Below, piece by piece: positions 20,554 through 27,103 of a stretch of DNA of 64,000 bases. Both the position numbers and the translations under genes were made by a program. Origin of the DNA: Escherichia phage LQ5; sequence record OR677401; one strand, written 5' to 3'. Positions within the stretch are counted from its first letter, which is position 1; the number at the start of each line of letters is the position of its first letter. The notes beneath the pieces are model-generated. The model searched no databases. It was not told where the DNA came from and saw only the letters and a list, made by a program, of their open reading frames with translations.

Positions 20554-20836
20554 TTTTGATGGAGCGGTTAATACCGCTTCCGAACCTGTCCATGTGCTCG
20601 TAAACAAACAACAGAATGGCCTTGATATTGAGGCCTTTGTTGAAGCCGAAGGTTGCAGTTACCTCGAAGCGGCTACCGCATGGTTGGAAGAGAACAGCAT
20701 CCCTGAAGGTAACTTTGCTCGTTATTTGCCTGCAGGAATTATTGATAAAATTATGAACGAAGCCATTGATGATAACTTGCTTCGACCTTCAATGGCCCGA
20801 ACGCAAAAGACTAATACCCTGGATTTCTTGTTATGA
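20534..20836 (+). CDS. 33: gp33 late-transcription co-activator
   Basis: 100-aa ORF overlapping the dsbA end, at the position between dsbA and 59. Confidence 0.7.
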   Translation: MTQSLNDFDGAVNTASEPVHVLVNKQQNGLDIEAFVEAEGCSYLEAATAWLEENSIPEGNFARYLPAGIIDKIMNEAIDDNLLRPSMARTQKTNTLDFLL

Positions 20837-21519
20837 TTAAACACACCGTATATAAAGTAACCAATAAATTGAATGGTAAAATTTATATCGGTGTGCATAA
20901 AGAAACCAAACGCCATGACCATTATATGGGTTCAGGTAAGTTAATTAAGAAGGCTATATTAAAACATGGTATAGAGAATTTTGAAAAAGAAATTCTCTTT
21001 GTTATGGATTCCCAAGAGGAGGCCTTTGATAAAGAGCGAGAACTCGTTAACGAAGAATTTGTTTCAGACCCGAATACTTATAATTTGGTTGTTGGCGGTA
21101 AAGGTGGACTTGGTAAGAAAATATCTGAAGAACATAAACTTGCTATAAGTAAATCTAAATTGGGTATTCCACGACCTGATAGTGTTTGTAAAAAAGTTTC
21201 TATAACAAGAAGACTTAGAAATATACCTTCACCAAATAAAGGTATTAATCTTACCGATGCACATCGAAAAGCTCTAAGTAAATCCAGAGCAGGTAAGAAA
21301 GGACCTAAAATGCCTGATAGTACAAGAGCTGCTCTTCTTAAGGCAAATACAGGACCTAGGCCACAATCTTTTAAAGACTTATACAAAAAGAAATTGCTTA
21401 TCGATGGAATATGTTATGATTCATGTTCTGAAGTGGCTTCCAAATTCGGAATATCCAATAGTTTGGTTAGTTACAGATTAAAAAGCGATAAGTGGACTGG
21501 ATGGAAATATCATGATTAA
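20833..21519 (+). CDS. Seg-type GIY-YIG homing endonuclease with NUMOD3-like repeats
   Basis: N-terminus VYKVTNKLNGKIYIGV (GIY...YIG); downstream repeats ISEEHKLAISKSKLG / TDAHRKALSKSRAGKKG / STRAALLKANTG; AT-rich. Confidence 0.7.
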   Translation: MIKHTVYKVTNKLNGKIYIGVHKETKRHDHYMGSGKLIKKAILKHGIENFEKEILFVMDSQEEAFDKERELVNEEFVSDPNTYNLVVGGKGGLGKKISEEHKLAISKSKLGIPRPDSVCKKVSITRRLRNIPSPNKGINLTDAHRKALSKSRAGKKGPKMPDSTRAALLKANTGPRPQSFKDLYKKKLLIDGICYDSCSEVASKFGISNSLVSYRLKSDKWTGWKYHD

Positions 21520-22165
21520 GATTCGTATGCCACCAAACAATAATCGTATGGTGAATGGTAAGAGCGTGTATTCTTTATATTTGCAACTTAAGCATCACTT
21601 CAATGCCAAATACGACGTTATCAAATATAACTGGGTCATGCGAATCTCTGATACGGCTTATCAAAAACGTCGTGACAAATATTTCTTTGAGAAATTGAGT
21701 GATAAATACACTTTGAAAGAGCTTGCTCTTATCTTCATGAGTAACTTGGTGGCTAACCAAGACGCATGGATTGGCGACATCAGTGATGCTGACGCCTTAG
21801 TCTTTTACCGAGAATATATCGGTAGACTTAAAAGAATAAAACAAGTTTTTGAGGATGATATCAAAAACATTTATTATTTTAGTAAGAAAGTGGAAGTCCA
21901 AGCGCTTTCTGAAATTTTTGATTATAATAAAAAAGTTAACTCGAGCTATATTTTTAAGCTCCTTCAATCGAATGTTATTTCATTCGAAACGTTTATTTTG
22001 CTTGACAGTTTTCTCAATATAATTGATAAGCATGATGAACAGACCAACGATTTAGTATGGTCTAAGTATTCAACTAAATTAAATGCTTATAAGAAAATTC
22101 TTATAATAGATGCTGTAGAGGCAAGAAAATTATTCATTGAGACTATTAAGAGTTGTCAATTTTGA
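21512..22165 (+). CDS. 59: gp59 helicase-loading protein
   Basis: 217 aa, same length as T4 gp59; long near-identical blocks (GKSVY.LYL..K.H.N.KYDVIKYNW.MR.SD.AYQKRRDKYFF.KLS.KY.LKELALIF.SNLVANQDAWIGDISDADALVFYREYIGRLK). Confidence 0.93.
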   Translation: MIKIRMPPNNNRMVNGKSVYSLYLQLKHHFNAKYDVIKYNWVMRISDTAYQKRRDKYFFEKLSDKYTLKELALIFMSNLVANQDAWIGDISDADALVFYREYIGRLKRIKQVFEDDIKNIYYFSKKVEVQALSEIFDYNKKVNSSYIFKLLQSNVISFETFILLDSFLNIIDKHDEQTNDLVWSKYSTKLNAYKKILIIDAVEARKLFIETIKSCQF

Positions 22166-22782
22166 ATATAGTTTATTGGCTAGAATTTAGTCAACGTATC
22201 AAAGCCAAAACACCTCCCTATTATTATATCGGGTCTAAGCATGATTGCTTAATTAAAAATGGTGTTATAATTGATTCACGTAACAAAGAATATTGGTCTT
22301 CGTGTAAACAACCACGATTTATCTCTGCTTTGTCTGAGCGTCCTAAAGTTAAAGTTCTTCATGTATGCGAAGATGTTTTAACTGAAGAAGAATTTTACCA
22401 TAATCATTATGATGTGGTTAAATCACCCTTATTCTTTAATAAGGCAATGGCTAAAGGGACTTTCAAATCCTGTTTGAAAGGTAAATCCAAATCTGAAAGC
22501 CATAAACAAAAGATGAAAGAAAGTTCTCATCTTAAAGGTAAAGAGCCATGGGAACATCCTAATGCTATAGCAAAAGGTACCCATTTAGTGTGGAAAAATG
22601 CTAAAGTCTTTTATGACTGGTATATAGGCCCACATGAAACTACTAGATTAGGTCCGAAGATAATGTCTCGTGAAACCGGTTTAGCCTGTTCTATAATGAC
22701 AGGACATTCAATGATAAATAAATTTAAATCAGGATGGAATCCTCATCTCGATATTAAATTTAATGAATTTGCTTCAAACTGA
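22153..22782 (+). CDS. putative Seg-like homing endonuclease (degenerate GIY-YIG, NUMOD-like motif)
   Basis: N-terminus IVYWLEF...YYYIGS; basic GKSKSESHKQKMKESSHLKGK segment; sits in the 59-32 interval where T4 carries segG. Confidence 0.45.
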   Translation: MSILNIVYWLEFSQRIKAKTPPYYYIGSKHDCLIKNGVIIDSRNKEYWSSCKQPRFISALSERPKVKVLHVCEDVLTEEEFYHNHYDVVKSPLFFNKAMAKGTFKSCLKGKSKSESHKQKMKESSHLKGKEPWEHPNAIAKGTHLVWKNAKVFYDWYIGPHETTRLGPKIMSRETGLACSIMTGHSMINKFKSGWNPHLDIKFNEFASN

Positions 22783-22886
22783 GGGTGATATAATTACCCT
22801 CTGGAACAAACCTAGTTATCAAGGTAAATGTGGTAACACCAACTGTTAATAATTAATTAATTAATTAAATAAATAAGGTAAATAAT
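22783..22886 (+). promoter_or_regulatory. gene 32 5' leader: AU-rich (UUAA/UAAU)n tract with upstream GGG...CCC hairpin, candidate gp32 autogenous translational operator
   Basis: gggtgatataattaccc hairpin followed by ttaataattaattaattaattaaataaataagg before the gp32 ATG. Confidence 0.5.
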
Positions 22887-23792
22887 ATGTTTAAACGTAA
22901 AGACCCTTCCCAACTGGCTGCTCAACTGTCTGCAATGAAAGGTGGTTCTTCTTTCTCTTCCGATGATAAAGCTGAATGGAAATTGAAAGATGACAACGGT
23001 GTTGGTACTGCGGTAATTCGTTTCCTACCTTCGAAAAACGAAGAAAATCCATCCCCATTCATTAAGCTCGTTAACCACGGCTTCAAGAAAAACGGTCAAT
23101 GGTACATTGAAAACTGCACGTCTACTCACGGTGATTTCGATTCTTGTCCTGTATGTAAATACATGAACCAGAACGATACCTTTAATACTAATAACGCCGA
23201 ATACAAACTGATGAAACGTAAAACTTCCTTCTGGGCTAACATCCTTGTTATTAAGGATAGTGCAGTGCCTGCTAACGAAGGTAAAGTGTTTAAATTCCGT
23301 TTCGGTCAGAAAATTATGGATAAAATCAACCAGATGGTTGAAGTTGATACTGATATTGGTGAAGTGCCGGTTGACGTAACATGTCCGTTTGATGGTGCGA
23401 ACTTCGTACTGAAATCTAAGAAAGTTGGCGACTTCAAAAACTACGACGATTCCAAATTCATGGGTCAGTCTGAAATTCCTAACATCAATGATGAAGCTTA
23501 CCAAGCTAAATTGATGGAAGAAATGCACGACCTTTCTAAACTGCTCGATTTCAAATCATTCGAAACTAACGAAGCTAAGTTTAAGAAAGTTGTTGGTACA
23601 GCTGCTCTTGGTGGTGCTGCCGCTAAAGCTTCTGCAGCCGCTGATAAGATTGGTGATGACCTGGACGCATTCAGTGCAGACCTTGATGCATATGACTCCA
23701 AACCATCTACACCGACTCGTTCCACTACTCCTGAGCCGTCAGTAAGTCCTTCTGATGACGATGGTCTGGACGACCTGTTAGCGGGTCTATAA
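22887..23792 (+). CDS. 32: gp32 single-stranded DNA-binding protein
   Basis: 301 aa, same as T4 gp32; near-identical over most of its length (GFSS.DK.EWKLK.D..G...[10 protein letters not shown]....[29 protein letters not shown]...; C-terminal DDLLAGL). Confidence 0.96.
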
Positions 23793-23808
23793 GTTATTGA
23801 TTTATAAT

Positions 23809-23833
23809 GGGAAGACTTCGGTCTTCCCTTTTT
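23809..23833 (+). terminator. rho-independent terminator after gene 32
   Basis: GGGAAGAC-UUCG-GUCUUCCC + U5. Confidence 0.75.
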
Positions 23834-23844
23834 GGCATTTAATG

Positions 23845-23873
23845 GTTTACAATGCCTTTAAACATGATACTAT
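23845..23873 (+). promoter_or_regulatory. T4-type early promoter (repeated promoter/leader cassette)
   Basis: gtttac, 17-nt spacer, TGATACTAT. Confidence 0.6.
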
Positions 23874-23902
23874 AGACCTATCAACTACATGAGGAAATAA
23901 AA

Positions 23903-24289
23903 ATGGAAATCGGTAAAAAATACGAACTTCGCCCTGAGCGTATCAAAGCTTTTATTAATATCACCCCTATCAATAATAACGATATGGTGGATATTATCCA
24001 AGACAATGGTGGTTGGTTCGAAGTAAAGGATACGATGACCTCGGATGGGGATAAATTTGTAACTAAAATCAAATGTGCGAATGGTAAGATTTTTAGTGCA
24101 GACGGGACACTAGAGGAATATTTTGAATTGCATGAAGATGAGTTCTATTGCTTCCGTGAATATGGTGAACAAGCTGATGAACCTGACACCCCTGTTACTA
24201 AGGCAGGTGTGACTCAAATCCATTGCATTGTCACCGAACAGAACGTCGACCAAATCATTGAACTTTTGCAAAAAACTTTTAAGGCCTAA
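23903..24289 (+). CDS. hypothetical protein (frd.x region; paralogue of 24902..25279)
   Basis: 128 aa; shares ...EYFEL.E.EF..F.E.......PD..T......V........I.L.K.TF... with the 125-aa ORF. Confidence 0.5.
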   Translation: MEIGKKYELRPERIKAFINITPINNNDMVDIIQDNGGWFEVKDTMTSDGDKFVTKIKCANGKIFSADGTLEEYFELHEDEFYCFREYGEQADEPDTPVTKAGVTQIHCIVTEQNVDQIIELLQKTFKA

Positions 24290-27095: not shown

Positions 27096-27103
27096 TATAA
27101 ATA
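27096..27103 (+). promoter_or_regulatory. possible late-type TATAAATA element upstream of nrdA
   Basis: exact tataaata 64 nt upstream of the nrdA start; function unverified. Confidence 0.25.

Follow-up and report, generated by a model that had tools for sequence, protein, structure and literature searches.

The closest described system is the gene 32 translational operator of T4, in which a structured nucleation element is followed by an unstructured, AU-rich tract of UUAA(A)/UAAA character that runs into the ribosome-binding site (PMC535899, PMC3014915). The structured element is a pseudoknot of about 28 nt, the UUAAA/UAAA tract exceeds 40 nt including the ribosome-binding site, and both parts are essential (PMC535899). 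The T4 gp32 footprint extends from +3 to -70. A structure of the T2 pseudoknot has been solved by NMR (PDB 2TPK, cited in PMC3014915). In T4 the pseudoknot and the end of segG overlap, the gene 32 promoters are embedded in segG (PMC2988022), and RNase E cleaves at -71, between the segG and gene 32 RNAs (PMC3014915, PMC2988022). The RB69 operator is diverged, keeps both the pseudoknot and the unstructured tract, and has been found experimentally to be repressed by either gp32 (PMC535899); it thus provides a precedent that sequence drift like that described below is compatible with function. A small extra hairpin is reported in the ribosome-binding region of RB69, whereas none is predicted for the sequence studied here. 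The rpsO (S15) operator of E. coli is alike in that an autogenous repressor acts via a pseudoknot beside the ribosome-binding site (PMC3014915), but its RNA and protein are unrelated, it lacks cooperative spreading over an AU lattice, and the likeness is not a family relationship.

The window analyzed here is a 64,000-nt stretch of DNA from Escherichia phage LQ5 (OR677401). The phage is T4-like, a member of the genus Dhakavirus (JS98 group), and its gene 32 lies within the dsbA-33-59-32-frd block. The closest match to this region is Escherichia phage 04086, with 97.4% identity over 1.8 kb. The 104 nt from 22783 to 22886 make up the entire intergenic leader of gene 32. This leader is probably a T4-type gene 32 translational operator, composed of a pseudoknot and an AU tract and placed under a MotA middle promoter; from the sequence comparisons given below, we put the probability of this reading at roughly 0.78. 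The predicted features of the locus are as follows.

22153 to 22782, plus strand: gene for a SegG-family, GIY-YIG-type homing endonuclease, between genes 59 and 32 (BLASTP)
22767 to 22776, plus strand: MotA box ATTTGCTTCA of a putative T4-type middle promoter (consensus match, 12 bp from the -10)
22781 to 22801, plus strand: GGG/CCC hairpin of 9 bp with the loop AUA, spanning the stop codon of the segG-like gene and enclosing the -10 hexamer
22786 to 22794, plus strand: extended -10, TGa plus TATAAT (hexamer 22789 to 22794), read from the sequence
22810 to 22837, plus strand: H-type pseudoknot of 28 nt, homologue of that of T4/T2 gene 32 (layout, alignment and covariation)
22838 to 22850, plus strand: conserved linker ACCAACUGUUAAU, directly 3' to the pseudoknot, identical in T4 and holding the ACUGU motif
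22846 to 22876, plus strand: A/U-only tract, (UUAA)4 and (AUAA)2, the proposed lattice for cooperative gp32 binding
Part of the gene 32 leader, besides the hairpin and the pseudoknot: the ACUGUUAA element
22875 to 22879, plus strand: Shine-Dalgarno sequence AAGGU, 7 nt before the AUG, read from the sequence
22887 to 23792, plus strand: gene 32, encoding gp32, the single-strand DNA-binding protein of 301 aa (Pfam PF08804, E 2.7e-52)
23809 to 23838, plus strand: intrinsic terminator 3' to gene 32, with an 8-bp stem, a UUCG loop and a T-run (terminator scan)

The genes that surround the leader are arranged as in T4. The gp32 of the window is 62% identical to T4 gp32, and in the protein alignment the Zn ligands H64, C77, C87 and C90 are invariant, as are F2 and R4 in the N-terminus, which reads MFKRKDPS in the window and MFKRKSTA in T4, differing at residues 6-7. 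The protein thus appears to retain the ssDNA/RNA-binding core, the Zn site and the basic N-terminus needed for cooperativity. In several relatives (L001, L004, L033, L003) gene 32 opens with ATGTCTATG (MSM...), two codons ahead of the MFKRK start that the window shares with T4, so that the distance from pseudoknot to start codon depends on the AUG chosen. T4, like the window, has a segG-family gene upstream, with T4 segG occupying the same place at the junction of genes 59 and 32. The segG-like ORF is 35% identical to T4 SegG (BLASTP, E 4e-38), and a Pfam search with the ORF at 22153-22782 gave zero matches. Gene 59 is flanked by two homing endonuclease genes (20833-21519 and 22153-22782), one of which is I-TevI/SegE-like GIY-YIG with NUMOD3 and an I-TevI DNA-binding domain in Pfam; JS98 is without either of them. 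The stem of the terminator 3' to gene 32 is G+C-rich and followed by TTTTT, and the element agrees with the conserved terminator found downstream of gene 32 in T4-like genomes (PMC1524935).

In the predicted pseudoknot, helix S1 is formed by ACCU (22810-22813) and AGGU (22822-22825), 4 bp, and helix S2 by GUUAUCA (22815-22821) and UGGUAAC (22831-22837), 7 bp; S2 abuts S1 directly. Loop L1 is the single A at 22814 and L3 is AAAUG (22826-22830), 5 nt. The window sequence ACCU-A-GUUAUCA-AGGU-AAAUG-UGGUAAC and the T4 sequence UGCC-A-GCUAUGA-GGUA-AAGUG-UCAUAGC are both 28 nt with the same partition, and MAFFT aligned the two without gaps. By the same parse the T4 pseudoknot lies at -67 to -40, in agreement with the literature (PMC3014915), whereas that of the window starts at -77. 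The window and T4 agree at only about 60% of the pseudoknot bases, and the window helices are weaker. They are the weakest of those compared, with S1 at -2.8 and S2 at -3.5 kcal/mol, against -3.1 and -7.3 for T4 and -6.1 and -7.0 for a T2-like phage; at 22832, in S2, the window has G and its nearest relatives A, so that a G.U pair takes the place of A-U. More generally, the T4/T2/T6 operators have the same gene, leader position and element order as the window, and that of T4 has the same 28-nt pseudoknot layout followed by the identical 13-nt ACCAACUGUUAAU, an unstructured A/U tract, AAGG and AUG. A blastn search with the leader reached T4-group phages from query position 83 onward. The locus therefore presents the leader position (-77 to -1), a predicted pseudoknot of about 28 nt, an unstructured A+U tract, T4 homology and the repressor, which are the marks of the operator.

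Gene 32 loci were gathered from IMG/VR and GenBank for comparison. The same compact pseudoknot was found 29-49 nt before the AUG in the window, 04086/MX01, VR5, T4 and the T2-like phage, and likewise in Klebsiella Marfavirus F48 and several uncultured lineages. For covariation, 12 distinct phage leaders were used, which MAFFT aligned in register without structural input. All 131 of the 131 pair cells form standard pairs, a figure that is partly so by construction because the rows were picked with a pseudoknot filter. Both sides have changed in compensatory fashion in 7 of the 11 pairs, and the covariation score was 0.80 compared with 0.24 in shuffles, none of 500 of which reached it. When the partners were slid, pairing fell to 23-50%. 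For the single sequence, an equal or better compact pseudoknot occurred in 23 of 300 dinucleotide shuffles of the window leader, a chance of about 8% that is not significant, so that the case rests on homology and covariation.

Other structure searches gave little. An Rfam scan of 22000-24200 at E<=10 returned only chance matches of the snoRNA type and no family for the operator, and the fold of the entire leader is no more stable than those of shuffles (z -1.18). Nested MFE folding cannot display a pseudoknot and gave S2 in one context and S1 in another. In such nested folds ACCU (22810-22813) or ACC (22838-22840) paired with the AGGU of the Shine-Dalgarno sequence; these pairings are weak and not conserved in T4, and were set aside. 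A metagenome scan with the Dhakavirus pseudoknot pattern gave 0 matches. Among more distant T4-like leaders (L055, L059/L060, L072, L092, L056/L057), a 7-bp S2 is seemingly kept as judged by eye, one example being GGUGUAC...GUACAUC followed by ACCAACUG. In these leaders the S1 hairpin is much longer and the loops are long, so that, again by eye, they look like expanded pseudoknots.

The 13-nt linker ACCAACUGUUAAU has no other exact match in the window, and a search of the window for another ACCAACTGTTAAT found none beyond chance. The AU tract that follows, TTAATAATTAATTAATTAATTAAATAAATAA, is 31 nt of A and T only; no other A/T-only run in the 64-kb window exceeds 20 nt, and about 0.004 runs of 31 nt are expected per 64 kb at 60.5% A+T. 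Within it, (TTAA)4 at 22853-22868 is the only tetranucleotide repeat of at least three units in the window, and Tandem Repeats Finder described the tract as period 4 with 8.0 copies and 89% matches. The whole stretch from pseudoknot to AUG (22838-22886) is 49 nt and 88% A+U, the longest AU tract among those compared (39 nt in T4 and 34 in the T2-like phage), and is made up of UUAA x4 and AUAA x2 rather than the UUAAA x2-3 of T4 and the T2-like phage. Its MFE of -2.8 kcal/mol (z +0.43) indicates no structure beyond that of shuffles, and the 39-nt tract of T4 is similarly unstructured (z +0.12). An unstructured, repetitive AU tract had been proposed here from the start and is confirmed by these results. 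AAGG is kept at the Shine-Dalgarno place in nearly all leaders.

The last codons of the segG-like gene contain the MotA box ATTTGCTTCA. The MotA-box consensus is (a/t)(a/t)(a/t)TGCTTtA, located 12 +/- 1 bp from a σ70 -10 that often carries TGn; the window sequence, 12 bp from TATAAT and with TGn, agrees with T4 middle promoters in consensus and spacing (PMC2988021). Both strands of the window were scanned for the pattern TGCTTnA-N11-13-TAnnnT, which was found 11 times on the plus strand and once on the minus strand, with 1.9 expected per strand. This strand bias and excess indicate that the pattern marks real promoters in the phage. A σ70 scan found no -35/-10 promoter at the gene 32 middle-promoter site, and the putative promoter has the MotA box, spacing and -10, without a -35, that are typical of T4 middle promoters. 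It differs from these in that its -10 sits in the loop of a strong inverted repeat; to our knowledge, such a placement is not a described feature of T4 middle promoters. Comparable promoters lie directly upstream of the pseudoknot in the T2-like phage and other relatives. In contrast to T4, the window has a putative MotA-type promoter and a hairpin immediately upstream of the operator. No late promoter TATAAATA was found in the leader, the nearest plus-strand copy being at 27096. Two more matches to the MotA-box/-10 pattern are present at 21999-22026, at the end of gene 59, and at 22246-22274, near the start of the segG-like gene; they recall the T4 gene 32 promoters inside segG.

The GGG...CCC hairpin that the original prediction placed before gene 32 is present at 22781-22801 and is stable by RNA folding. 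Its arms are GAGGGUGAU (22781-22789) and AUUACCCUC (22793-22801), and its energy of -12 kcal/mol compares with a shuffle mean of -4.5 (z = -4.0; 0 of 200 shuffles equal). At the same site the MX01 group has a hairpin with different arms, GAAGUGAU...AUUACUUC (-7.3 kcal/mol, z -5.3), and VR5 one with arms UGAAGUAGUA...UAAUUACUUCA (-9.0 kcal/mol, z -5.4). Because the arms differ among the three Dhakavirus variants yet stay complementary, the hairpin appears to be under selection as a structure in these phages. No significant hairpin was found at the corresponding site in T4 and most other lineages. The hairpin was also considered as an intrinsic terminator and rejected: it has no U-run, UGGAACAAAC comes next, and it was absent from the terminator scan. 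Since the arms flank the -10, an RNA initiated at the middle promoter omits the hairpin, which can exist only in read-through RNA from the upstream segG-like gene. It may act at the junction of the endonuclease and gene 32 messages, as a boundary or as a stability element, and its position is comparable to that of the T4 RNase E cut at -71. In two other leaders (L041/L045), a 5-bp stem (CUGAU/AUCAG) likewise encloses a late-promoter TATAAATA; the loop AAUUA resembles the RNase E motif RAUUW found just 5' to the T4 pseudoknot.

Taken as a T4-type operator, the locus would work as follows. The MotA-dependent middle promoter, its -10 wrapped by a hairpin that would belong only to read-through RNA from the segG-like gene, would start a monocistronic gene 32 mRNA near 22801, the predicted transcript start. 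In this mRNA the pseudoknot (22810-22837) and the adjoining ACCAACUGUUAAU would form a high-affinity nucleation site for gp32, from which the protein would spread cooperatively in the 3' direction over the 49-nt unstructured tract (22838-22886). The site size of gp32 is about 7 nt per monomer, and the 49-nt lattice would hold about 7 monomers. The spread gp32 would cover the Shine-Dalgarno sequence (22875-22879) and the AUG, blocking ribosome entry. Repression would begin only once there is more free gp32 than single-stranded DNA to take it up, and would in this way set the gp32 level. That gp32 binds the window leader and represses through it is expected by analogy with T4 and RB69.

A search of 50,697 phage genomes found no record with this leader. 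The best leader match, 04086, is 88.6% identical over the leader and 97% over the flanks, and (TTAA)4 was found in none of the collections searched outside this phage, the metagenome scan included. In the nearest relatives the AU tract is non-repetitive and 42-47 nt long; VR5 reads ACUGUUAAUAAUUAAAUAUAUCAAAUAAGG and MX01/04086 reads ACUGUUAAUAAAUUUAUUAAAUAUAUCAAAUAAGG. VR5 has one UUAA unit at the position of (UUAA)4, and the window tract looks like a VR5-type tract plus three UUAA units, minus a small deletion. The (UUAA)4 would most simply be explained as a slippage expansion within the gp32 lattice. An identical leader is found in MX01, LHE83, Bp7 and AnYang, which were named and deposited as four separate phages; the tract is therefore not generally hypervariable. 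T4 and two related leaders (L068/L118) differ by exactly one UUAAA unit and have identical pseudoknots, so changes in unit number do occur in the family. An IMG/VR scan for ACCAACTGTTAA...AAGG...ATGTT yielded 5 true T4-type leaders and 15 chance matches, and these 5 are too few to assess repeat-number polymorphism.

Within the genus, the pseudoknot leader is one of two types. Most Dhakavirus isolates have a JS98-type leader, which is unstructured and without a pseudoknot and contains four CUGYUAA repeats. The phages with this leader (JS98, IME08, JS10, QL01, NC-G and others) belong to the same genus as the window and have gp32 sequences 98-100% identical to its own; their leaders have the same MotA box and the same AAGGUAAAUAAUAUG ribosome site as the window and share one ACUGUUAAUAA element with it. 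In L005/L029 (IMGVR_UViG_2974735671), gp32 is 100% identical to that of the window and the leader is JS98-type. As an identical gp32 is there served by a leader without a pseudoknot, the pseudoknot may be dispensable in Dhakavirus. NC-G (L003) combines the window's segG-like endonuclease with a JS98-type leader (L002 being JS98 itself), which indicates that the leader of about 100 nt is a recombination mosaic. In the window, the pseudoknot half of the leader resembles VR5/MX01 and gene 32 resembles the IME341/QL01 group.

Several other readings of these sequences were weighed against the operator. The original prediction compared the leader with T4 and assigned to the GGG...CCC hairpin the part of the structured nucleation site beside the AU tract, the role of the T4 pseudoknot. 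The hairpin is real and stable, and the retention of its structure with differing arm sequences in the MX01 and VR5 groups would suit such a role. However, it encloses the promoter -10 and precedes the point, about 22801, at which the RNA is predicted to start, so that it would be missing from RNA begun at that promoter; 44 nt separate it from the AU tract, and the true pseudoknot homologue (22810-22837) lies in that gap; it has no second helix with which to form a pseudoknot; and most other pseudoknot-bearing leaders, T4 included, have no significant hairpin there. A nucleating role for the hairpin is very improbable on this evidence. Of the T4-like architecture that was proposed, the pseudoknot and the unstructured AU tract were found, but the hairpin is not the equivalent of the pseudoknot; the proposal is in part supported, as it named the kind of system correctly but picked the wrong structure as the important one. 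The AU tract could also be an unstructured, S1-friendly translation enhancer of a gene with very high expression, with the pseudoknot, in this genus, a decaying relic through which gp32 autoregulation does not act. The lack of structure in the tract fits an enhancer, the window pseudoknot is the weakest of those compared, relatives with identical gp32 have no pseudoknot, and for RB49 neither operator element is reported (PMC3014915). Against this, the pairs of the pseudoknot are all intact in the window and the three nearest variants, the sole difference among these variants, G versus A at 22832, preserves the pair, and ACCAACUGUUAAU is retained exactly; moreover, an enhancer and a repressor lattice can coexist. 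We regard loss of autoregulation as unlikely.

The remaining alternatives concern the repeats in the tract. The (TTAA)4 was proposed to be microsatellite-like and to vary in length between isolates, and a stronger form of this idea would make it a contingency-type microsatellite whose length tunes the gp32 level between isolates. No other perfect tetranucleotide repeat occurs in the window, one UUAAA unit separates T4-type leaders, and relatives differ in how far the pseudoknot stands from the AUG (29 to 49 nt). Yet (TTAA)4 occurs in no relative searched, the searches gave no further isolate carrying this repeat in which a length polymorphism might be visible, the four separately deposited leaders of the MX01 group are identical, and four units is short for high slippage rates. 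Variation in repeat length is thus weakly borne out, by the one-unit difference between T4 and L068/L118, and a contingency function seems rather improbable. The eight UAA triplets of the tract, which parses as U-UAA-UAA-U-UAA-U-UAA-U-UAA-U-UAA-A-UAA-A-UAA, might instead mark a target of the translational repressor RegA, in place of gp32 or besides it. UAA triplets emerge from SELEX with RB69 RegA, and the sites of RegA lack structure and have a high A+U content (PMC3014915). On the other hand, reviews describe gene 32 as autogenously controlled by gp32 and not as a RegA target, and the UAA periodicity is missing from the nearest relatives; it would be surprising if RegA acted here.

The comparison of leaders also drew attention to a short motif. 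In 66 distinct 70-nt gene 32 leaders, ACUGU is the most over-represented 5-mer, with 72 occurrences against 2.8 expected, although z-scores for it overstate independence because the leaders are phylogenetically related. The motif is strand-specific and shows a sharp peak at -80 to -1, with 76 ACTGT against 1 ACAGT in the gene 32 leaders L029-L108, and it recurs in otherwise unalignable gene 32 leaders. T4 and the window each have the longer form (A)ACUGU(U/A)AA once, at the 3' edge of their pseudoknots (22842-22849 in the window), and leaders without a pseudoknot, the JS98-type included, have two to four copies. In phages with almost no intergenic space, the ACUGU motif lies within the last codons of gene 59 (GAAACTGTTAAAAACTGTAAATTTTAA). 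A literature search for an ACUGU motif in gene 32 leaders found no description of it. We suggest, tentatively and with more doubt than confidence, that the strand-specific (A)ACUGU(U/A)AA, and not the pseudoknot, may be the most widely conserved element of gene 32 leaders.

The type of operator is already known from T4 gene 32, and the window adds a member in another genus. The finding as first given matters little, and the present analysis corrects which structure is the nucleation site. Its comparative value is that many T4-like lineages display clean compensatory changes in the pseudoknot, and that the window phage stands at the end of the range with a weak pseudoknot and a long tract. If the ACUGU motif proves to be the sequence-specific determinant by which gp32 (or another factor) recognizes the gene 32 mRNA, the weak pseudoknot of the window would be an accessory. 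The two Dhakavirus leader types would then constitute a natural swap experiment on an Ssb that recognizes its own message. The occurrence of an identical gp32 with either a pseudoknot leader or an ACUGU-repeat leader bears on a question raised in reviews, how gp32 distinguishes its own mRNA from single-stranded nucleic acids in general.
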